Shown here piece by piece: positions 4,474 through 63,968 of a stretch of 64,000 nt of DNA. Under the pieces are notes generated by a model, which was not told the DNA's origin, made no database searches, and saw only the letters and a list, made by a program, of their open reading frames with translations. The number at the start of each line of letters is the position of its first letter. Position 1 is the stretch's first letter. The position numbers and the translations under genes were made by a program. Source of the DNA: Escherichia phage APCEc01; sequence record NC_029091.1. The stretch is one strand, 5' to 3'.

Positions 4474-4789
4474 TATTAAACCGGTTGATGAGGCCGGTTT
4501 ATCTGAACAAGAATTAGCAGTAAAACACGATAAAGATGATATCGCTAAATTGCTTGACCGGCAAGAAAACGGATTCATTATCGAATCCATGGTTGAACAA
4601 TTTGGTATGTCTTATTTAGAAGCAACAACTGCTTTCTTGGAAGAAAATTCTATTCCAGAAACACAATTTGCTAAATTTATTCCTACAGGAATTGTTGAAA
4701 AAATTACAAGCGAAGCAATTGACGAAAACATGCTTCGCCCATCAGTTGCTCGTGGCGAAAAAACTAATACGTTAGATTTCTTATTATGA
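4451..4789 (+). CDS. 33: Late transcription accessory factor gp33
   Basis: 112 aa, MTQFSLSDIKPVDE... matches recalled T4 gp33; synteny. Confidence 0.85.
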   Translation: MTQFSLSDIKPVDEAGLSEQELAVKHDKDDIAKLLDRQENGFIIESMVEQFGMSYLEATTAFLEENSIPETQFAKFIPTGIVEKITSEAIDENMLRPSVARGEKTNTLDFLL

Positions 4790-5557: not shown

Positions 5558-6460
5558 ATGTTTAAACGTAAATCTACTGCTGACCTCGCTGCTCAAATGG
5601 CTAAACTGAATGGTAACAAAGGTTTCTCTTCAGAAGATAAAGGCGAATGGAAGCTGAAGCTAGATGCATCCGGTAATGGTCAAGCGGTAATTCGTTTCTT
5701 GCCAGCAAAAACTGATGATGCACTACCATTTGCAATTCTTGTTAACCACGGTTTCAAGAAAAATGGTAAATGGTATATTGAAAATTGCTCTTCTACACAT
5801 GGTGATTATGACTCTTGTCCTGTATGTCAGTACATTAGTAAAAATGACCTGTACAATACCAACAAAAATGAATATTCTCAACTGAAACGTAAAACTTCTT
5901 ATTGGGCTAATATTCTGGTTGTTAAAGACCCTCAAGCTCCAGATAACGAAGGTAAAGTATTTAAATATCGTTTCGGTAAAAAGATTTGGGACAAAATCAA
6001 TGCAATGATTGCTGTTGATACCGAAATGGGTGAAACTCCAGTTGATGTTACTTGTCCGTTTGAAGGTGCCAACTTCGTTCTGAAAGCTAAGCAGGTTTCC
6101 GGTTTTAGCAACTATGACGAATCTAAATTCTTGGGTCAATCTGAAATTCCTCGTATTAATGATGAAGCATTCCAGAAAGAACTATATGACCAGATGGTAG
6201 ACCTTACTACTTTGACGGCTAAAGACCAGTTCAAATCCTTTGAAAAATTAAATGAATCTTTCGCTAAGGTTCTTGGTACTGCCGCTCTTGGTGGTGCAGC
6301 AGCCGCAGCAGCTTCTGTTGCAGATAAAGTTGCTTCTGACCTTGACGATTTTGATAAAGACATGGAAGCCTTTAGTTCTGCAAAAACTGAAGATGACTTC
6401 ATGAGCTCTACCTCATCCTCTGATGATGGCGACCTCGATGACCTGTTAGCTGGTTTATAA
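5558..6460 (+). CDS. 32: Single-stranded DNA-binding protein gp32
   Basis: 300 aa; [36 protein letters not shown]... and acidic C-terminus match recalled T4 gp32. Confidence 0.95.
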
Positions 6461-6466
6461 TAAATT

Positions 6467-6488
6467 GGGAGACTTCGGTCTCCCTTTT
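6467..6488 (+). terminator. Rho-independent terminator after gene 32
   Basis: gggagac ttcg gtctccc followed by tttt. Confidence 0.8.
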
Positions 6489-6515
6489 GAGTATCTGTAA
6501 ATTGCCGAAAAAGTT

Positions 6516-6544
6516 GTTTACTTCTTCCCTGGATGTGTTAGTAT
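6516..6544 (+). promoter_or_regulatory. Sigma70-type early promoter
   Basis: GTTTAC, 17 nt, TGtTAGTAT; followed by conserved leader ending caacaacatgaggaaa before the ATG. Confidence 0.6.
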
Positions 6545-6573
6545 AGACCTATCAACAACATGAGGAAATCAAA

Positions 6574-6966
6574 ATGGAAATCGGAAAATCTTATATCATT
6601 AACCCTTTATTTAAAGATGACTTTGTTCAAGAAGCACCACACAATAATGCTAAGATGTTAAAATTGATTGAACTCCACGGGCCTAGTTTTGTTGTAAACG
6701 GAATGGAACCTGATTATGATAGCGATACGTCAAACGTAGTAAGTGTAACTATGGAAGATGGTACTGTATGTTCTGCCGGTGGTGAAATTGAAACTTATTT
6801 TGAGATTTATCCTGACGAGTTCAAATACTTTACTGAGGTAGATATAGTAAAGCCTCAACCTACTAACGAAGGTATAGCTTTAGGTGTAACAAAAATCCAT
6901 TGTATCGTAGATGAAACCAACGTCGACGAAATCATCGAACTTTTGCAAAAAACTTTTAAAAAGTAG
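6574..6966 (+). CDS. Hypothetical early protein (frd.3-position ORF)
   Basis: 130-aa ORF with RBS gagga, own early promoter; no recognisable motif. Confidence 0.5.
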   Translation: MEIGKSYIINPLFKDDFVQEAPHNNAKMLKLIELHGPSFVVNGMEPDYDSDTSNVVSVTMEDGTVCSAGGEIETYFEIYPDEFKYFTEVDIVKPQPTNEGIALGVTKIHCIVDETNVDEIIELLQKTFKK

Positions 6967-6995
6967 TGTACAATCAGATAGGGTTATGTTATAGT
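6966..6995 (+). promoter_or_regulatory. Sigma70-type early promoter
   Basis: GTGTAC, 18 nt, TGtTATAGT. Confidence 0.45.
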
Positions 6996-7028
6996 AGCCC
7001 TATCAAATCAAAAGTGAAGGAGAATAAA

Positions 7029-7277
7029 ATGAGATTGCAACGTCAGAGCATCAAAGATTCTGAAGTTAGAGGTAAATGGTACTTCAACATCGTTGGTAAA
7101 GATGCTGAACTCCTTGAACAAGCTGAAGAAGCTTTACGCGAAATGGGTTGGAACGAAGAATGTGATGGATGTCCACTCTACGAAGATGGTGAAAGTGCAG
7201 GATTCTGGATTTGCCACTCTGATGTTGAAATGTTCAAAGCCGATTGGAAAGTTGTTAAGAAAAATCTGAGGAAATAA
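7029..7277 (+). CDS. Hypothetical early protein
   Basis: 82 aa from ATG with strong RBS gaaggag; the longer track ORF starts at a GTG inside the promoter. Confidence 0.45.
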   Translation: MRLQRQSIKDSEVRGKWYFNIVGKDAELLEQAEEALREMGWNEECDGCPLYEDGESAGFWICHSDVEMFKADWKVVKKNLRK

Positions 7278-7279
7278 TT

Positions 7280-8965
<1,686 letters not shown>

Positions 8966-9250: not shown

Positions 9251-9273
9251 AACGGGATAAATACTATCCCGTT
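9251..9273 (+). other. Stem-loop in nrdA leader (9-bp stem aacgggata/tatcccgtt)
   Basis: Perfect inverted repeat with 5-nt loop, no U tract. Confidence 0.4.
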
Positions 9274-9308
9274 TGGAGTAATGTCTATCAACCTATACTG
9301 AGGAATAT

Positions 9309-11564
9309 ATGCAAGTAACTAAGAGCAGTGGTGTATCCCAAAATTTTGATGCACAGAAAATTATTCAAGTCTTAACTTGGCAATGTGAAGGAACACAAAT
9401 TGACCCATATGAATTGTACGAAGAAATTAAGACCCATCTTGTCGACGGGATGAGCACCAAAGATATCCAGAAGATTTGTATTAAAGTTGCAGCTAACTCG
9501 ATTTCTGTCGAAGAACCTGATTATCAGTATGTCGCCGCCAAAGGGCTAATGTTTGCACTTCGTAAAGATGTATATGGGCAGTTTGAACCGCCTGCTTTTA
9601 TCGACCATATTTCTTACTGTGTTAATGAAGGCAAATATGACCCTGAGCTGTTGTCTCAATATTCAGCAGAAGAAATCATTTATCTCGATTCACAGATTAA
9701 ACATGAACGAGACTTTGACCTGACTTATGCTGGTGCTATGCAGCTTAAAGAAAAATATCTAGTTAAAGATAAAACAACTGGGAAGATTTATGAAACTCCA
9801 CAGTTTGCTATCATGGCTATTGGCATGGCCTTACACCAAGACGAAACTCATGACCGTTTGAAACATATTATTCGTTTTTATGATGCCGTTTCTACTCATC
9901 AAGTTTCATTGCCAACCCCAATTATGGCAGGTGCTCGTACTCCGACTCGCCAGTTCTCTAGTTGTGTAGTTATTGAAGCCGGTGATTCGTTAAAATCTAT
10001 TAACAAAACTTCAGCATCAATTATTGAATATATTTCTAAACGAGCTGGTATCGGTATCAACGTTGGTATGCTTCGTGCAGAAGGTTCTAAGATCGGTATG
10101 GGTGAAGTTCGACATACGGGTGTTATTCCATTCTGGAAACATTTCCAAACTGCAGTAAAATCTTGTTCTCAAGGTGGTATTCGTGGTGGTGCTGCTACAG
10201 CGTATTATCCGATGTGGCACTTAGAAGTAGAGAACCTATTAGTTCTGAAAAATAACAAAGGCGTGGATGAAAACCGTATTCGACATATGGACTACGGAAT
10301 TCAGATTAATGACCTTATGATGGAACGCCTTGGTAAAAATGATTATATTACTTTATTTAGCCCTCACGAAATGTCAGGCGAACTATACTACTCGTTCTTT
10401 GAAGATCAAGATAAATTCCGTGAGCTTTATGAGAAAGCTGAAAAAGACCCAACAATCAGAAAGAAAAGAATCAAAGCACTAGAACTCTTTGAATTGTTCA
10501 TGACTGAACGTTCTGGCACCGCTCGAATTTATCCGCAATTCGTTGATAACACGAACAACTACACTCCATTTATTCGTGAAAAAGCTCCAATTCGTCAGAG
10601 TAACTTATGTTGTGAAATCGCTATTCCAACTAATGATGTGAATGGTCCTGATGCTGAAATTGGTTTATGCACATTATCTGCTTTTGTATTAGATAAATTT
10701 GATTGGCAAGACCAAGATAAAATTAATGAACTTGCTGAAGTACAAGTACGTGCACTTGATAACCTGCTAGACTATCAAGATTATCCGGTTCCGGAAGCTT
10801 TAAAAGCTAAAAAGCGTCGAAACCTCGGTGTTGGTGTGACGAACTATGCAGCATGGTTAGCTTCTAACTTTGCTTCATATGAAGACGCTAACGATTTGAC
10901 TCATGAATTGTTTGAGAGATTGCAATATGGCCTTATCAAAGCATCAATCAAACTCGCCAAAGAAAAAGGATGTTGCGAGTATTATTCAGACACTAAATGG
11001 TCTAGAGGCGAATTACCTATCGACTGGTACAATAAAAAGATTGACCAAATCGCAGCCCCGAACTACGTCTGTGACTGGGAAGAACTTCGAGCTGAACTCA
11101 AAGAACATGGAATTCGTAACTCAACGTTGTCTGCACTCATGCCTTGTGAGTCAAGCAGTCAAGTATCAAACTCTACAAACGGGATTGAGCCACCACGTGG
11201 TCCAGTAAGTATTAAAGAATCTAAAGAAGGCAACTTCCGACAGGTTGTTCCTAATATCGAACATAACATGAGTCTTTACGACTATGCGTGGAAACTTGCT
11301 AAGAAAGGTAATAAACCTTATTTGACCCAAGTTGCTATCATGTTGAAATGGGTGTGCCAATCTGCTTCTGCTAATACTTACTATGACCCTGCAGTATTTG
11401 AGAAAGGTAAAGTGCCAATGTCAGTAATGCTTGACGATCTGCTTTACTTCTGGTACTTTGGCGGAAAAAACCTCTACTATCATAACACTCGTGATGGGTC
11501 TGGTACAGACGACTATGAATTAGAAACACCTAAAGCAGAAGATTGTTCTGCTTGTAAGCTTTAA
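9309..11564 (+). CDS. nrdA: Aerobic ribonucleotide reductase large subunit
   Basis: 751 aa; class I RNR alpha signature, C-terminal CxxC (DCSACKL); synteny. Confidence 0.95.
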   Translation: MQVTKSSGVSQNFDAQKIIQVLTWQCEGTQIDPYELYEEIKTHLVDGMSTKDIQKICIKVAANSISVEEPDYQYVAAKGLMFALRKDVYGQFEPPAFIDHISYCVNEGKYDPELLSQYSAEEIIYLDSQIKHERDFDLTYAGAMQLKEKYLVKDKTTGKIYETPQFAIMAIGMALHQDETHDRLKHIIRFYDAVSTHQVSLPTPIMAGARTPTRQFSSCVVIEAGDSLKSINKTSASIIEYISKRAGIGINVGMLRAEGSKIGMGEVRHTGVIPFWKHFQTAVKSCSQGGIRGGAATAYYPMWHLEVENLLVLKNNKGVDENRIRHMDYGIQINDLMMERLGKNDYITLFSPHEMSGELYYSFFEDQDKFRELYEKAEKDPTIRKKRIKALELFELFMTERSGTARIYPQFVDNTNNYTPFIREKAPIRQSNLCCEIAIPTNDVNGPDAEIGLCTLSAFVLDKFDWQDQDKINELAEVQVRALDNLLDYQDYPVPEALKAKKRRNLGVGVTNYAAWLASNFASYEDANDLTHELFERLQYGLIKASIKLAKEKGCCEYYSDTKWSRGELPIDWYNKKIDQIAAPNYVCDWEELRAELKEHGIRNSTLSALMPCESSSQVSNSTNGIEPPRGPVSIKESKEGNFRQVVPNIEHNMSLYDYAWKLAKKGNKPYLTQVAIMLKWVCQSASANTYYDPAVFEKGKVPMSVMLDDLLYFWYFGGKNLYYHNTRDGSGTDDYELETPKAEDCSACKL

Positions 11565-11618
11565 GACTTTTTATTATAATTTACTCATGGATGAGTTAAT
11601 AACTAAGTGAGAAATATA

Positions 11619-14417: not shown

Positions 14418-14447
14418 GTTTACAAACACCAAGGATGGTGATACTAT
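14418..14447 (+). promoter_or_regulatory. Sigma70-type early promoter
   Basis: GTTTAC, 18 nt, TGaTACTAT; the track ATG at 14435 lies inside the promoter spacer. Confidence 0.6.
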
Positions 14448-14476
14448 GGGTTTATCAACAACACGAGGAGAAAATT

Positions 14477-14977
14477 ATGAATATGCAATTGATTACTAAC
14501 GATATGGTCGTAAACGCTTTTGGAGACACAACTGACGGAATCCGGGTCTTTAAGAAAGGACGTCCAGTTGGTTATCTTACTGACCTACGTGTTACACTGG
14601 CCAAAAATCTTAAAAAGAAAGTAAAACAAAAAGAGTATTCAACCCGATACGCTGAAGAGAAACGCGAAGCGATGCCGGAAGCAGTTAATGCCATGGTAGA
14701 ATTTCTTCAAAACAATTTGACTAAATATGATGCTAATGTGTTCATTAATATTAGTCAACCAAACGTACATATCGCAGGTATAAAATTCTACATTATTTGC
14801 GACCCTCTTACCGACAAATTCAACCGCCTCGGAATTTCAAGTCCATATCATACAGCAGAAGAGTTGTGTGTATTGTTTGAATCATACAAAATCCAGTGTG
14901 ATGGTTTGAAAACCGTTCTTATCAATGGATTATCCCGAGATGAAATCATTGAGATTATTAAAACATGCTTAAAGTAA
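14477..14977 (+). CDS. alc: Alc-like protein (putative host transcription inhibitor)
   Basis: 166 aa from ATG with RBS gaggag; length and position (between rnlA and pseT) as T4 alc; assignment by synteny only. Confidence 0.5.
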   Translation: MNMQLITNDMVVNAFGDTTDGIRVFKKGRPVGYLTDLRVTLAKNLKKKVKQKEYSTRYAEEKREAMPEAVNAMVEFLQNNLTKYDANVFINISQPNVHIAGIKFYIICDPLTDKFNRLGISSPYHTAEELCVLFESYKIQCDGLKTVLINGLSRDEIIEIIKTCLK

Positions 14978-17948: not shown

Positions 17949-17978
17949 GTTTACAACATGGTGGAGTTGTGATACTAT
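17949..17978 (+). promoter_or_regulatory. Sigma70-type early promoter
   Basis: GTTTAC, 18 nt, TGaTACTAT; conserved leader ccaacaaatgaggaaa. Confidence 0.6.
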
Positions 17979-18243: not shown

Positions 18244-18363
18244 TGAGAGCTATCTCATTACTATCGAGAATGGTCATAAATCTGAGCACTACCAACTTAG
18301 CCTGTCTAATCCGGTTAAAGGTATTGTTGAATCAGAATCTGTTTATATCTCCTAAGGATTGTT

Positions 18364-19356
18364 ATGTTACCTGTCGTCGGAAAACTTATTTCTCCAAAAG
18401 AACTGGCTGAGATTATTCCTTTGTCGGAAGCTTACGCGTCACAAGTGGTTTCTCATCGCGAACAAGTTAATTCGATTATGAACGGTGAAGACCCACGCAA
18501 ACTTATTGTTGTAGGTCCTTGTTCAATTCATGACCCTATTGCTGCTGTTGAATACGGCAAACGTCTGGCTGAACTTCAAACTCGTCTTCCTAATGTTCTG
18601 TTAGTGATGCGCGTTTATTTTGAAAAGCCTCGAACTACCGTAGGTTGGAAAGGTCTTGTAAATGATCCATATCTTGACGGAAGTTTTGATATGAACCACG
18701 GTCTTATAGTTGCACGAACATTGTGTCGTAAACTTCTACGTATGGGACTTCCATTAGCAACTGAAGTATTAGACCCATTCACGATTAAGTATCTTTCTGG
18801 TATTTTCTCATGGGTTGCTATTGGCGCCCGTACGACTGAAAGTCAGACACATCGTGAAATTGCTTCAGGTCTACCGATGTGCGTAGGCTTCAAGAACGCA
18901 ACCAATGGTTCTATTAAAGTAGCTACAGACGCGATGTATAGTGCCGCCTGGCCTCATCGGTATATGGGTATGGACGTCGATGGTACTGTAGGCATTGTTG
19001 AAGCTGAAGGTAATCAGAATACGCATATCGTATTGCGTGGTGGGACCAACGGTCCGAACTATCATTCTTCTGATATTCAAGAAGCTTCTAACAAAGCAAG
19101 GGCAGTAGGTCTGAATCATTATGTAATGGTTGACTGTAGCCATGCAAACGCTGATGGGCATTATAGCAATCAAATTGGTATTGGTAAAAATTTAGCAGCT
19201 AATGATTTGGTCAAAGGAATTATGATAGAATCGTTCCTACATGAAGGAAATCAAAAAATTTCTGATAATATGTCCTATGGCGTTTCCGTTACCGATGCGT
19301 GCATCAGTTGGGAACAAACTAAAGAGCTGTTAACTTATATTAATAAGGTTCAATAA
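18364..19356 (+). CDS. 3-deoxy-D-arabino-heptulosonate 7-phosphate (DAHP) synthase, AroG/AroF-type class I
   Basis: 330 aa; motifs GPCSIHD, KPRTTVGWKGL, GARTTESQ, CSHANA, IESFLHEGNQ, TDACISW correspond to conserved and metal-ligand regions of E. coli AroG. Confidence 0.85.
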   Translation: MLPVVGKLISPKELAEIIPLSEAYASQVVSHREQVNSIMNGEDPRKLIVVGPCSIHDPIAAVEYGKRLAELQTRLPNVLLVMRVYFEKPRTTVGWKGLVNDPYLDGSFDMNHGLIVARTLCRKLLRMGLPLATEVLDPFTIKYLSGIFSWVAIGARTTESQTHREIASGLPMCVGFKNATNGSIKVATDAMYSAAWPHRYMGMDVDGTVGIVEAEGNQNTHIVLRGGTNGPNYHSSDIQEASNKARAVGLNHYVMVDCSHANADGHYSNQIGIGKNLAANDLVKGIMIESFLHEGNQKISDNMSYGVSVTDACISWEQTKELLTYINKVQ

Positions 19357-20998: not shown

Positions 20999-21253
20999 GT
21001 TTTAGGTGATTCGCTACCTTAAGTGCGGCTAGAAAATCGAGGAGCCGTCGAACTGTCTGATTAATGATTTGCGAATCATTATAGTTTTAAGGCCCCGGCA
21101 GTTTTACGGTGTACCTCTTGAATGTATTTTGTACTATCACGCGTCAGAAAAAGGTTATCTGTCTAAGTCGTGGTTGGTATGATGACGGGTTTATGGTTAT
21201 CCTGTCGGTAAATATTCAAAACCTAAGTACCCCTTTGAGGGCTTTCGCAGGCA

Positions 21254-21472
21254 ATGCCAATAAGTCCTGCATTTTCATTTAAAAGAGAATTTATAATGGC
21301 AAAACAAGTTAAAGCAAAGAAAGCAGTTGAAAAGAAAGTTGGTGATTCTAAACGCGCTGGCTACAAGCGTGGGTCGAACTCTCGTATCAATCAAACTGTT
21401 GAGAAGATCATGCGCCGAGCACGTGCGGTTCTTCGAGATGATGCTTCTCGTTTTGGAAAGGTTGTTGCATAA
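21254..21472 (+). CDS. Small highly basic protein (start uncertain; alternative ATG at 21296)
   Basis: Lys/Arg-rich sequence MAKQVKAKKAVEKKVGDSKRAGYKRGSNSR...; followed by a strong terminator. Confidence 0.45.
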   Translation: MPISPAFSFKREFIMAKQVKAKKAVEKKVGDSKRAGYKRGSNSRINQTVEKIMRRARAVLRDDASRFGKVVA

Positions 21473-21477
21473 TTTTA

Positions 21478-21499
21478 GGGAGACTTCGGTCTCCCTTTT
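21478..21499 (+). terminator. Rho-independent terminator
   Basis: gggagac ttcg gtctccc tttt, identical to the hairpin after gene 32. Confidence 0.8.
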
Positions 21500-21531
21500 G
21501 TGCGTTTAGGGCGGAAAAAGTTTAAAAAGAT

Positions 21532-21560
21532 GTTTACTCTCCTGTAGGATGTGTTACTAT
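21532..21560 (+). promoter_or_regulatory. Sigma70-type early promoter
   Basis: GTTTAC, 17 nt, TGtTACTAT. Confidence 0.6.
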
Positions 21561-21602
21561 AGACTTGTACCACCTAATCAATAAAACAACCTGGAGAACA
21601 AA

Positions 21603-21971
21603 ATGAAAATCAATCTGAACTCATACATCAAATGTAAAGACCATGATGGTTATAAAGCTATCGAAATTAAAGAATTCCAGTGGATGTTATACAAAGAGCA
21701 ATTTGAGTTCGTAGGTTGTATGACCCCTGAAGGTCCTTCTGATGATTTCTCTTGGAAAATTGTGTTAGCAAACTTTTTCACAGGTGACACATACGAATTA
21801 AAAACTATTATTACCGGTAAAATTCGTTCAGAAACATATGTTGACGAAGAAACTGGTTACTCTGAAGATGTTACATGGTATCAAAATGGACGCATTACCG
21901 CAGATAACCTGATCGAAAAAATGAAAGCCAAAGGTGTTTTAAATTTAGACAATTGGATTAAAGTTGCATAA
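21603..21971 (+). CDS. Hypothetical early protein
   Basis: 122-aa ORF, RBS ggag, own early promoter. Confidence 0.5.
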   Translation: MKINLNSYIKCKDHDGYKAIEIKEFQWMLYKEQFEFVGCMTPEGPSDDFSWKIVLANFFTGDTYELKTIITGKIRSETYVDEETGYSEDVTWYQNGRITADNLIEKMKAKGVLNLDNWIKVA

Positions 21972-21975
21972 AACA

Positions 21976-22004
21976 GTTTACTTTGGTACAGGTTATGTTA
22001 TTAT
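21976..22004 (+). promoter_or_regulatory. Sigma70-type early promoter
   Basis: GTTTAC, 17 nt, TGtTATTAT; flanked by 10-bp inverted repeat tggtacaggt/acctgtacca. Confidence 0.55.
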
Positions 22005-22045
22005 AGACCTGTACCAACAAACAACTTAAACATCTGGAGAATAAA

Positions 22046-22411
22046 ATGAACTACACCAACTTCGAACGTAAATATGTTTCTAACGGTATTGCTGGTTCTT
22101 CTGAAGTTATTTGCTTATGGAAACACGAAAACGGTACAGTTTGTGAAATCGAACAGTGCATGACTCCTAATTACGTTTATATGCGATTTGAAAATGGTAT
22201 CACGGTTTCAATCACGATGGAAGGTTCAAATTTTAAAATTGCATTAGATGATGATTTCCGTCAGCGTGATTTAGGTACTCATCCTTGCTGGAATGGTGTT
22301 AATCGTAAACTTCTGGTTAAAACTTGGATTCGTCATATCCTGAGTAACCGAGCTAAACCTGAACATCTTGAAGCAATCTTTGATGTAGTTCTTAACGAAT
22401 TTGATATCTAA
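22046..22411 (+). CDS. Hypothetical early protein
   Basis: 121-aa ORF, RBS ggag, own early promoter. Confidence 0.5.
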   Translation: MNYTNFERKYVSNGIAGSSEVICLWKHENGTVCEIEQCMTPNYVYMRFENGITVSITMEGSNFKIALDDDFRQRDLGTHPCWNGVNRKLLVKTWIRHILSNRAKPEHLEAIFDVVLNEFDI

Positions 22412-22418
22412 ATTAATT

Positions 22419-22434
22419 GGGAGCCGAAGCTCCC
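22419..22434 (+). other. GC hairpin without U tract (gggagc cgaa gctccc)
   Basis: Perfect 6-bp stem; the track ORF TTG start lies inside it. Confidence 0.5.
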
Positions 22435-22446
22435 ACTGAGGAAATT

Positions 22447-23061
22447 ATGTTTAAAGTTAATACTTTTTATAAAATGAATTTTAAAAATGGGGATATTACT
22501 CCACACCTTAAAAACATGTTCTCATATGACCTTATTGAGCCTTTTGAAGTTTTAGAAGTTACTGATGCCGGCTCAGTTTGTGAAATTAGAACTTCTGAAG
22601 GTAAAATTTATCAGGCCGGTGTTGGTAAATTCAGTAATTGTTTTACTTTAATATTCTCGACCGATTTAGATGAGCATTTTATTGAATGTCCTAACCCTAA
22701 GGTCTATGAAGTTCCACATCAAGAAACTAAGAAAAATGGACCGCACGAATATACGAAGGTTGAAACTCCTCACGGCGTGATGTGGCGACATAACTCTCCT
22801 TTTGGAAGTAAAGGAACATTTGCTCAACTGGCTAAGCCCTACGACGATGAAAAATATGTAGTAGTCCTTTTATCTGAACAGGGTACTCAAGACCGTGGAT
22901 GCCAGCGTTCTGGTTTATTGAGTGAACTCGAAGCTCATAACCTAGCACGTGAATTCGTTGAGAAAAATCCTGGTTCTGAAGCTCTAGTCATGAAAGCAAT
23001 TACTCAATATATCACTGCTCAACCTGTTGTTCATCCGGTAGAAATTAATTTCATTAAGTAG
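22447..23061 (+). CDS. Hypothetical protein
   Basis: 204 aa from ATG with RBS gagga downstream of the hairpin. Confidence 0.5.
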   Translation: MFKVNTFYKMNFKNGDITPHLKNMFSYDLIEPFEVLEVTDAGSVCEIRTSEGKIYQAGVGKFSNCFTLIFSTDLDEHFIECPNPKVYEVPHQETKKNGPHEYTKVETPHGVMWRHNSPFGSKGTFAQLAKPYDDEKYVVVLLSEQGTQDRGCQRSGLLSELEAHNLAREFVEKNPGSEALVMKAITQYITAQPVVHPVEINFIK

Positions 23062-23115
23062 TGTACATCCAAGGACGGATTAGAGTATAATGATTTCTTT
23101 AGTAAGTGGAAAAAT

Positions 23116-23313
23116 ATGAAATTTTTAATAGCACAAACAGTCCAATTAAAAGGTGTTGGAATCCCTGGGATGATTTTTAAAGTTCTCAACGAATTTAAAA
23201 CTGCCGCTGGAATTATCAATGAAGCGTATGCTGTTCAATGGGTTGATGGGACTTCTGACATACGTATGGGTAAAGAGTTATCTCCTATTAAAGGGTTGAA
23301 ACATGTTGAATAA
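23116..23313 (+). CDS. Hypothetical protein
   Basis: 65-aa ORF. Confidence 0.35.
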   Translation: MKFLIAQTVQLKGVGIPGMIFKVLNEFKTAAGIINEAYAVQWVDGTSDIRMGKELSPIKGLKHVE

Positions 23314-41308: not shown

Positions 41309-41494
41309 ATGAGAGCTGAAGTTGAAGTTTATACATTACATGAGGCGGGATTTTCATTCGTAGAAATTGCTCAAAAAATTGGTTTACAACCTAAAGAAGT
41401 TGGATTACTATGGACTAAAGCCGAGATAGCTCGGTCAAAGTTTAAAGCAAAAGAAAAAGTTGTATACCGTAAACGTTTGATTAACAAAAGGTGA
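41309..41494 (+). CDS. Small protein with helix-turn-helix-like segment
   Basis: 61 aa from ATG (track start is TTG); FSFVEIAQKIGLQPKEVG resembles an HTH. Confidence 0.4.
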   Translation: MRAEVEVYTLHEAGFSFVEIAQKIGLQPKEVGLLWTKAEIARSKFKAKEKVVYRKRLINKR

Positions 41495-44223: not shown

Positions 44224-44253
44224 GTTTACAACGTATTTGGTATGTGATACTAT
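44224..44253 (+). promoter_or_regulatory. Sigma70-type early promoter
   Basis: GTTTAC, 18 nt, TGaTACTAT; conserved leader ...cagaggag... Confidence 0.6.
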
Positions 44254-44283
44254 AGACTTATCAACTACAGAGGAGTAAACAAA

Positions 44284-44553
44284 ATGACTAAAGCACGTTT
44301 CTTACGAGATACTTTAAAAGTTCTGGAAGCTGAAGCAGTTAAGTTAGTAGAAAAATATGGTGCAAAAGTTAATGGTAATGCCTTCAACAAAGTATGGATG
44401 AAAGTTGATTCTGAAGCTCGAGCTAAAGGTTATTGGGCCACTGATAAACTTGCATCATTCAAAAACAAAGACGGTTCTCCGGCATATGTCCAAGAAGGTA
44501 TGCCTAATTGGCAAAATATTTTGAAAACTTACATCGAAATTGCACAGAAATAA
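44284..44553 (+). CDS. Hypothetical early protein on opposite strand between capsid genes 24 and 23
   Basis: 89-aa ORF with RBS gaggag and own early promoter; no recognisable domain. Confidence 0.5.
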   Translation: MTKARFLRDTLKVLEAEAVKLVEKYGAKVNGNAFNKVWMKVDSEARAKGYWATDKLASFKNKDGSPAYVQEGMPNWQNILKTYIEIAQK

Positions 44554-44581
44554 AACCAAAAATGGGAGACCGAAGTCTCCC
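44554..44581 (-). terminator. Rho-independent terminator after gene 23 (minus-strand orientation)
   Basis: gggagac cgaa gtctccc, reverse complement of the gene 32 terminator hairpin; U tract on minus strand. Confidence 0.75.
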
Positions 44582-63940: not shown

Positions 63941-63968
63941 ATACAAAAATGGGAGCCCGAAGGCTCCC
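63941..63968 (-). terminator. Rho-independent terminator (minus strand), presumably ending the upstream gene 8 transcript
   Basis: gggagcc cgaa ggctccc with U tract on minus strand. Confidence 0.7.

Follow-up and report, generated by a model that had tools for sequence, protein, structure and literature searches.

Does the sequence that follows gene 32 in Escherichia phage APCEc01 act as a regulatory cassette through which small genes come and go? The analysed window comprised 64,000 nucleotides of record NC_029091.1. In it, the original prediction had placed a unit of roughly 80 bp, a stem-loop followed by an early promoter, after gene 32 (copy 1) and again near position 21478 (copy 2), and had likened it to the promoter-early stem-loop (PeSL) regulatory cassettes of T4-type phages (Arbiol et al. 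2010, PMC2839356; Comeau et al. 2014, PMC4122927). We found that the two copies share one anatomy, that their parts recur non-randomly, and that sequenced relatives carry recombinant junctions inside these parts. With a probability of about 80%, each copy is a T4-type terminator joined to an early promoter, the repeated sequences of which serve as homology patches for the gain, loss and exchange of open reading frames (ORFs), as is typical of PeSL behaviour. The promoter and terminator activities are predicted from consensus sequences and from orthology with T4 features.

Genomes and comparisons

The window comes from a T4-like Mosigvirus in the RB69 group. Relative to Shigella phage JK36 it shows 99-100% identity, is oriented as the minus strand of the JK36 record, and contains an additional segment of ~1.1 kb. 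Insertions and deletions (indels) were surveyed by aligning ~2-50 kb of the window to AV118, RB69 and LF82-7, giving three whole-region comparisons. A generic sigma-70 scan was uninformative in this AT-rich window (69 sites versus 60 expected); early promoters were searched instead with the T4-type pattern GTTTAC-N17/18-TAnnnT, and the chance level was taken from dinucleotide shuffles. The window early promoters were also compared segment by segment and ranked as 66 pairs. A search of the whole window against Rfam at gathering thresholds gave zero matches.

Anatomy of the two copies

Both copies were located where they had been placed. Behind the stop codon of gene 32 (6458-6460), which encodes the single-stranded DNA-binding protein, we identified the hairpin, the A-tract, the -35 hexamer GTTTAC, a 17-nt spacer and the -10 hexamer TAGTAT of copy 1. 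Behind the stop codon (21470-21472) of a 30.9-like ORF that follows rIII, the hairpin, the A-tracts, GTTTAC, the 17-nt spacer and TACTAT of copy 2 were all present (21477-21602; Table 2). As evident from pairwise alignment, the two copies have a mean column identity of 81% over ~130 nt. The hairpin with its T-tract (GGGAGACTTCGGTCTCCCTTTTG) forms a run of 23 consecutive identical bases, and after the hairpin both copies share an A-tract, GTTTAC, 17 nt, TA(G/C)TAT and AGAC.

Each copy combines a GC-rich hairpin with an immediate U-run past a stop codon on the transcribed strand, as expected of an intrinsic terminator. The hairpin of copy 1 showed a dG of -13.6 kcal/mol (z -3.4) and that of copy 2 a dG of -19.2 kcal/mol (z -6.1); positions 6467-6484 gave the top-ranked terminator-like match. 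The copy 1 terminator is identical in LF82-7, AV116 and RB69. A terminator is found downstream of gene 32 in 5 of 6 T4-like genomes (Nolan 2006, PMC1524935), and in T4 the same slot holds a terminator, an early promoter and a small ORF in the same layout, the terminator sequence being unrelated. At the junction orthologous to that of 30.9 and 30.8, the SA21RB record annotates a terminator and a T4 early promoter. The copy 1 leader reads ...ATCAACAACATGAGGAAATCAAA directly before the ATG at 6574, and the genes past it are, in order, frd.2, frd.1, an 82-aa ORF, and then frd and td.

At the level of sequence the proposed likeness to PeSL elements held, as the copies contain a stem-loop, an AT-rich tract, a sigma-70-type promoter and a Shine-Dalgarno (SD) sequence with an ATG, and crossovers fall inside the elements. 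In particular, the stable stem-loop lies in intergenic space, 31 nt (copy 1) or 35 nt (copy 2) upstream of the -35 hexamer. The promoters read GTTTACT-N17-TAGTAT (copy 1) and GTTTACT-N17-TACTAT (copy 2), with aaaaag tracts upstream, and fit the consensus of the T4/PST PeSL promoters, TTTACW-N17-TAYWAT (PMC4122927). At the 3' end of each copy an SD sequence precedes the start codon (GAGG in copy 1, GGAG in copy 2). ORF insertion, deletion, replacement and displacement with crossovers in the element were all found, at 30.8, ORF245c, the frd.2 unit, 44275-44550 and frd.3.

Recombinant junctions in sequenced relatives

The original prediction had expected relatives to show indel breakpoints at the elements, and such breakpoints were present at the 30.8 deletion, the ORF245c insertion, the extra frd.2 unit of LF82-7 and the 30.6A replacement. 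Gene 30.8 is missing in AV118, and the alignments on either side of the gap overlap by 75 nt, which correspond to the tandem promoters at 21532 and 21976. The AV118 sequence agrees with copy 2 up to and including TTACTATAGACTTGTACCA, from where it continues as the leader of the 30.7 promoter; the crossover lies inside TATAGAC(T/C)TGTACCA, and TATAGACYTGTACCA marks the fusion of copy 2 with the 30.7 leader. This structure occurs in five records (AV118, AV116, AV115, PTE-Eco05 and SQ17), and because four records share the junction of AV118, it is not an assembly artefact. Since T4-like phages, JS98 and RB69 all have 30.8, the AV118-type state is a deletion, and it is the genomic product expected if recombination between neighbouring elements excised a mini-circle, as described for PeSL elements.

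At copy 1, RB69 is the same as the window through the hairpin, the A-tract and GTTTACTT, and then continues with a different spacer, -10 hexamer and leader and with the 228-bp ORF245c. The final codons of this ORF restore ATCAACAAATGAGGAAATCAAAATG before frd.2, and the alignments overlap by 26 nt at this junction; the copy 1 leader is a conserved linker that is doubled around ORF245c in RB69. ORF245c is inserted at copy 1 in RB69 (locus L005, 1299-1526) and in ~9 others, and it is present in only ~10 Mosigvirus records. A homologue with 67% identity is carried by the Vequintavirinae (rV5-like) Escherichia phage A5-4 (locus L015, 1477-1719), which points to an exchange of ORF245c between unrelated phage groups.

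In T4, the slot after gene 32 is occupied by frd.3, which is unrelated. JK36 has a frd.3 homologue (59% amino acid identity to T4) not beside gene 32 but in its tRNA-e region (record 73132-73359; locus L016, 7133-7360, minus strand), and the -10 hexamer and leader of its promoter match the window promoter at 6966. The frd.3 homologue of JS98 lies between orf232 and frd.1. LF82-7 contains an extra unit of a promoter plus a frd.2 paralogue between two promoters, comparable to frd.2a and frd.2b of JS98.

RB69 and AV118 carry an unrelated 30.6 in place of 30.6A (plus 30.5). The left end of this replacement lies at the hairpin after 30.7, and the right end relative to AV118 lies at the start codon at 23116, after a promoter-like site (GTGTAC at 23062, N19, TATAAT). 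A 135-bp segment right after the rIII stop codon (20999-21133) is missing from AV118 and LF82-7, and its right breakpoint falls in the -10 hexamer of a promoter-like site for the 30.9-like ORF. In LF82-7, positions 44275-44550 are replaced by 933 bp, including a homing endonuclease, between the leader of the 44224 promoter and a third copy of the hairpin. The overlap homologies at junctions inside repeats were 75, 45, 30 and 26 nt.

Recurrence of the hairpin, the promoters and the leaders

Alignment of the early promoters, which had been proposed as a check, revealed similarity beyond the promoter hexamers: the 23-nt hairpin and T-tract are identical, and 40/42 and 43/43 nt agree at unrelated loci. 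The 18-nt hairpin has three exact matches in the window (6467-6484 and 21478-21495 on the plus strand, 44564-44581 on the minus strand) and one relative with two mismatches at 63951 on the minus strand, compared with ~0.01 expected from shuffles. The early-promoter pattern occurs 12 times on the plus strand and 0 times on the minus strand (0.53 +/- 0.73 expected), and only 2 of these ~12 promoters have a stem-loop alongside. Among the 66 promoter pairs, the pair of copy 1 and copy 2 takes rank 15 in the 25 nt before the -35 hexamer, rank 7 in the spacer, rank 14 at +1 to +10 and rank 61 in the leader. These ranks indicate that the promoter half is generic to its family; the hairpin alone is specific to the pair.

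The copy 1 promoter agrees at 40/42 nt, non-consensus spacer included, with an element that the RB69-like phage ECCR664 carries in its tRNA-e region behind a different hairpin. It has 1-5 matching places per Mosigvirus genome, and its best matches in JN02 and moskry are located away from the gene 32 slot. No paralogue was found in the JK36 tRNA-e region (66-82 kb) at <=3 mismatches; the paralogue of the copy 1 promoter is therefore polymorphic. An identity of 43/43 nt (TACTATAGACTTATCAACTACAGAGGAGTAAACAAAATGACTA) extends from the -10 hexamer to just past the ATG (ATGACTA) and joins window positions 44248-44290 to an ORF of the JK36 tRNA-e region (locus L016, ~7565-7607, minus strand). The ORFs behind these two promoters are unrelated, and their -35 and spacer regions differ.

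Reduced versions of the element, consisting of an early promoter and a leader ending in caacaa(c)atgaggaaa, had been predicted at 17949, 28893 and 44224. This leader is present at 17949 and 28893, but 44224 has merely a related one (caactacagaggag). Another reduced version, at 14418, carries caacaacacgaggag, and a leader of the form (AT)CAACAA(C)A(T/C)GAGGA is common to 14418, 17949 and 28893.

The leaders fall into two subfamilies, ATCAACAA(C)ATGAGGAAA with the SD sequence GAGG (6562-6565) and ...CTGGAGAA(C/T)AAAATG with the SD sequence GGAG (21593-21596, 22037-22040 and 7016-7019). GGAG is the motif that the T4 RegB endoribonuclease cuts in early mRNAs, and the two leader classes may differ in mRNA inactivation. 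A perfect GTTTAC-N18-TACTAT at 41382-41411 has neither an SD sequence nor an ATG behind it and probably lies within a coding region.

One hairpin at four terminator sites

Earlier work reported terminators conserved behind genes 32 and 23 and at the 35/36 boundary, together with 57 predicted early promoters in RB69 (Nolan 2006, PMC1524935). We found that one and the same hairpin occupies four anciently conserved terminator sites in Mosigvirus (after 32, after 30.9, after 23 and at 35/36), on both strands and in early and late transcripts (Table 1). The copy between genes 35 and 36 was observed in JK36 (locus L001, 12940-12957, minus strand) and has no promoter. T4 and JS98 share stems other than that of Mosigvirus both at 35/36 and at 30.9, so the Mosigvirus lineage appears to have switched at least two of its terminators to this one hairpin. 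After gene 23, the GGGAGAC hairpin is already present in JS98 in identical form.

Tentatively, and at slightly below even odds, we suggest that the identity of the hairpin reflects concerted evolution of terminators within the genome and not a shared cassette. Concerted evolution, if true, would imply copying of very short tracts (~20 nt) between non-homologous loci, by gene conversion or by template switching at hairpins. As an alternative to such copying, selection particular to the lineage would favour this precise RNA hairpin, for instance through recognition by a protein or an RNase.

Table 1. Stem and loop sequences at four terminator sites. The comparison terminators lie at T4 L017 4540-4560 and L018 2310-2330 and at JS98 L020 2259-2285 and L022 105-125.
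Site	Mosigvirus	JS98	T4 or T4-like
After gene 23	GGGAGAC-TTCG-GTCTCCC	identical	GGGAACC-TTCG-GGTTCCC
Genes 35/36	GGGAGAC-TTCG-GTCTCCC	AGGAACC-TTCG-GGTTCCT	GGGACCC-TTCG-GGTTCCC
After gene 32	GGGAGAC-TTCG-GTCTCCC	GGGAAGAC-TTCG-GTCTTCCC	GGGGACC-CTAGA-GGTCCCC
After 30.9	GGGAGAC-TTCG-GTCTCCC	GGGACTC-TTCG-GAGTCCC	GGACTCC-TTCG-GGAGTCC (SA21RB)

Junctions without modules and the case for convergence

Several observations weigh against a role of the elements as homology patches. The first concerns neighbouring indels that have no promoter or hairpin and show just 13-30 nt of microhomology at SD/stop sequences. The ORF at 7280-7528, which RB69, AV116 and AV118 lack, has its junctions at the SD/stop sequence CTGAGGAAATAA; a 192-bp ORF of LF82-7 is flanked by the 14-nt repeat ATCTGAGGAAATAA; and a 1.1-kb insertion with a DAHP synthase gene is flanked by ATAATGA.AGCTA at stop/start junctions. 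The second is that the enrichment of breakpoints at modules was not significant, although the three comparisons leave this test underpowered: 6 of 11 non-endonuclease indels touched a module, and about one third of all junctions contain one. In the early region only, 5 of 8 non-endonuclease indels touched a promoter, leader or hairpin, compared with ~36% of junctions that have a module. The association in the indel counts is suggestive, and since the enrichment is not significant, the case rests on the anatomy of the junctions. Moreover, hairpin copies exist that lack a promoter, the similarity between the promoter halves of the two copies does not exceed that of random early-promoter pairs, and the activities of both promoter and terminator are themselves predictions. 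The U-tract has only 4 U, so termination may be partial.

Two groups of insertions were recorded alongside these indels. The DAHP synthase (Pfam DAHP_synth_1, E 5e-75; ORF 18364-19356) lies with a small ORF at 18258-19353 between cd.2 and cd; this segment is present in AV118, LF82-7 and phiC120 and missing from RB69 and JK36. Five homing-endonuclease or intron insertions of AV118 or LF82-7 are missing from the window, at 4789, 8652, 9273-9330, 11557-11618 and 12304. The insertions that these phages have and the window lacks are a seg-like gene between genes 33 and 59, a td intron with I-TevI, endonuclease genes around nrdA and nrdB, and an nrdB intron.

The non-significant enrichment and the indels at plain gene boundaries would agree with pure functional convergence, according to which good terminators and early promoters just look alike, play no part in rearrangement, and mark the places where selection has not removed indels because they lie outside genes. 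The generic promoter halves fit this explanation as well, as do the ancient terminator positions after genes 32 and 23 and at 35/36, which are conserved across T4-like phages (PMC1524935), and the frequency of UUCG-loop hairpins, of which the window has 9. We nevertheless consider convergence unlikely. It leaves unexplained the overlap homologies inside repeats and the visible switch point in AV118, and the near-complete or complete identities of 40/42 and 43/43 nt extend over non-consensus spacer and leader sequence before unrelated ORFs. In addition, at 35/36 and 30.9, where T4 and JS98 share another stem, at least four identical coordinated substitutions would be needed per site.

Crossover points and proposed mechanism

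The crossover points were located at the -35 hexamer, from the -10 hexamer to ~+15, at the leader/ATG, at SD/stop sequences and in the hairpin, and this scatter suggests homologous rather than site-specific recombination. Experimental mapping in PeSL elements placed crossovers in the loop, in the AT-rich region and in the stretch between the -10 hexamer and the ATG (Arbiol et al. 2010, PMC2839356). The scattered crossovers of the Mosigvirus elements match those mapped experimentally in PeSL mini-circles.

We propose that the homology patches work as follows. The terminator part, a very stable C(UUCG)G-tetraloop hairpin with a U-tract, would end or attenuate upstream transcripts (gene 32; rIII-30.9) and probably also stabilises their 3' ends. 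The promoter part, which consists of an A-rich UP-like tract, the -35 hexamer GTTTAC, an extended -10 and a short leader with an SD sequence, would be read by the host sigma-70 RNA polymerase straight after infection and would restart transcription into small accessory genes (frd.2, frd.1 and the next ORF; 30.8, 30.7 and 30.6A). Repeats of the hairpin, promoter and leader/SD on one strand would thereby offer portable patches of homology to the very active homologous recombination of the phage. Crossovers inside these patches could delete, duplicate, insert or swap entire ORFs and leave the neighbouring genes correctly expressed.

It is very improbable that a dedicated recombinase or structure-specific nuclease instead recognises the hairpin and moves ORF cassettes, as in integron-like site-specific recombination. 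Such a system would account for the identical hairpin at or near replacement boundaries (44550-44563; 22418-22435) and for the loop at 22418-22435, which is flipped relative to relatives; a stem-loop-binding protein was indeed speculated upon, and one crossover was mapped to the loop (Arbiol 2010, PMC2839356). However, the crossovers coincide with runs of identity over the promoter, leader and SD/stop sequences, as in homologous recombination, many junctions have no hairpin, and no recombinase candidate was identified, none having been searched for.

One unit or separate modules

The claim of an 80-bp unit stood only in part. The order of the parts and their overall identity are the same in both copies, but two independently reassorting modules are present and not one repeat. 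Because the hairpin is found without the promoter and the promoter halves are generic, the cassette is not a single mobile unit. It is a juxtaposition of sub-modules that recur independently, namely the hairpin, the UP and -35 sequences, the spacer and -10 sequences, and the leader/SD. The window contains two full composites of hairpin and promoter, and at least one further type exists elsewhere in Mosigvirus; conservation is modular and not continuous over ~100 bp.

A single hairpin-plus-promoter cassette of ~80-100 bp that was duplicated or transposed as one unit is therefore hardly credible. Apart from the shared part order and the 81% identity, it could appeal to the order of parts after gene 32, which is also kept in RB69, LF82-7 and AV116. 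Yet between the hairpin and the -35 hexamer the copies share just the 9-mer GAAAAAGTT, at a differing distance, and their leaders are unrelated (61/66). Hairpin copies without a promoter exist at 44564-44581 and at 35/36, ECCR664 has the copy 1 promoter with a different hairpin, and RB69 retains the copy 1 hairpin and -35 hexamer with another spacer and -10 hexamer. Terminal repeats, target duplications and a transposase are all absent.

Two further candidates were rejected. Segmental duplication including the downstream genes fails because the 130-aa and 122-aa ORFs behind the copies show no relationship (BLASTP E > 7), which limits the similarity to regulatory sequence; a transposon or miniature inverted-repeat transposable element fails because unit-length copies, terminal inverted repeats and target duplications are lacking and the modules are separate and differently combined.

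Comparison with known systems

We compared the elements with PeSL cassettes, with T4 and with two other kinds of mobile gene arrangement. Like PeSL cassettes, they are repeated in regions of small non-essential ORFs, and close relatives differ by ORF changes with crossovers inside the element. There were also differences: the phage is an RB69-like Mosigvirus, outside the published pairs RB49/phi1, T4/PST and KVP40/nt-1; the stem is GGGAGAC/GUCUCCC with a UUCG loop, whereas PeSL elements have a polyG/polyC stem; and the hairpin and promoter modules of the window visibly reassort independently, with a stem-loop at so few of the promoters.

T4 early promoters and C(UUCG)G-tetraloop terminators are reportedly treated by Miller et al. 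in MMBR in 2003 and by Tuerk et al. in PNAS in 1988. The window shares with T4 the -35 hexamer GTTTAC, a GT-rich extended -10, A-tracts before the promoter and, after gene 32, a terminator at a conserved position. In T4, however, this terminator reads GGGGACC-CUAGA-GGUCCCC, and frd.3 takes the place of frd.2 as the first ORF past it.

The segment at 44224-44581 (promoter, 89-aa ORF, hairpin) resembles a lambdoid moron, an ORF equipped with its own promoter and terminator: it is placed between late genes 24 and 23, in opposite orientation to them, and the flanked ORFs are accessory genes. Illegitimate recombination is the presumed route of entry for morons, whose composition usually differs. 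In contrast, the regulatory sequences of the window supply the homology, and the ORFs are typical of the T4 family (FRD2, DUF5417, Phage_30_8 and Gp30_7). Integron cassettes with their attC hairpins are similar in that small-ORF arrays served by a promoter, with structured repeats in between, are gained and lost as units. In contrast to integrons, no integrase was identified for the window system, its crossovers are not confined to the hairpin, and each cassette brings or shares its own promoter.

Features of the flanking regions

The positions of the elements and of the genes around them are collected in Table 2. The hairpin after 30.7 has the loop CGAA in the window and TTCG in RB69 and AV118, and the flip lies exactly at the left boundary of the 30.6A/30.6 replacement.

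Table 2. Putative regulatory features and neighbouring genes, with positions in the window.
Feature	Position	Strand	Description
Copy 1 terminator	6467-6488	+	hairpin GGGAGAC-UUCG-GUCUCCC 6467-6484, then TTTT 6485-6488; 7 nt past gene 32 stop
Copy 1 early promoter	6505-6544	+	A-tract ccgaaaaagtt ending 6515; -35 GTTTAC 6516-6521; 17-nt spacer with TGn; -10 TAGTAT 6539-6544
Copy 1 leader AGACCTATCAACAACATGAGGAAATCAAA	6545-6573	+	SD GAGG 6562-6565; ends at frd.2 ATG 6574
frd.2 homologue	6574-6966	+	Pfam FRD2; conserved, duplicated in LF82-7 and JS98
Second early promoter, upstream of frd.1	6966-6995	+	GTGTAC, N18, TATAGT; bounds extra frd.2 paralogue of LF82-7
frd.1	7029-7277		DUF5417
Variable 82-aa ORF	7280-7528	+	missing from RB69, AV116, AV118; precedes frd and td
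Reduced version: early promoter (N18) and leader ATCAACAACACGAGGAG	14418-14482	+	
Reduced version: early promoter (N18) and leader CCAACAAATGAGGAAA	17949-18006	+	
Promoter-like site	21110-21140	+	GTGTAC, N18, TACTAT; in 135-bp segment after rIII
Copy 2 terminator	21477-21499	+	hairpin 21477-21496: copy 1 hairpin with one extra A-U pair, then U-tract; 4 nt past 30.9-like stop
Copy 2 early promoter	21514-21560	+	two A-tracts; -35 GTTTAC 21532-21537; N17; -10 TACTAT 21555-21560
Copy 2 leader AGACTTGTACCA...	21561-21602	+	SD GGAG 21593-21596; ATG 21603
Gene 30.8	21603-21971	+	Pfam Phage_30_8; tandem early promoters on either side; deleted in AV118, AV116, AV115, PTE-Eco05, SQ17
Early promoter upstream of 30.7	21976-22004	+	GTTTAC, N17, TATTAT; right-hand partner of 30.8 deletion
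Gene 30.7	22046-22411		Gp30_7
Hairpin after 30.7	22418-22435	.	GGGAGC-CGAA-GCUCCC on plus strand; left end of 30.6A versus 30.6 replacement
30.6A-type ORF	22447-23061	+	no Pfam match; unrelated 30.6 in RB69 and AV118
Reduced version: early promoter (N18) and leader ATCAACAACATGAGGAAA	28893-28952	+	
Early promoter and leader	44224-44283	+	before 89-aa ORF (44284-44553) between late genes 24 and 23; left breakpoint of LF82-7 replacement at 44275
Third exact hairpin copy	44564-44581	-	predicted to end minus-strand gene 23 transcript; no neighbouring promoter on own strand; at right breakpoint of LF82-7 replacement

Implications for T4-like phages

The element type is already known as the PeSL, and what is mildly new is the presence of one hairpin sequence at four old terminator sites in Mosigvirus. 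The spread of this hairpin through the genome poses a small, testable question on short-tract conversion. The results extend the PeSL model to another genus, with sequence-resolved natural examples in RB69-like phages, and refine it, as the cassette is a mosaic of independently exchanging sub-modules and plain SD/stop junctions do the same job.

Recombination between modules would explain much of the variation in ORF content among isolates that are otherwise 95-99% identical. The module sites may also provide natural, expression-neutral places for insertions and deletions in the engineering of therapeutic T4-like phages. For the phages themselves, repeated regulatory linkers would allow small accessory genes to be gained, lost and moved while the expression of their neighbours is left undisturbed.

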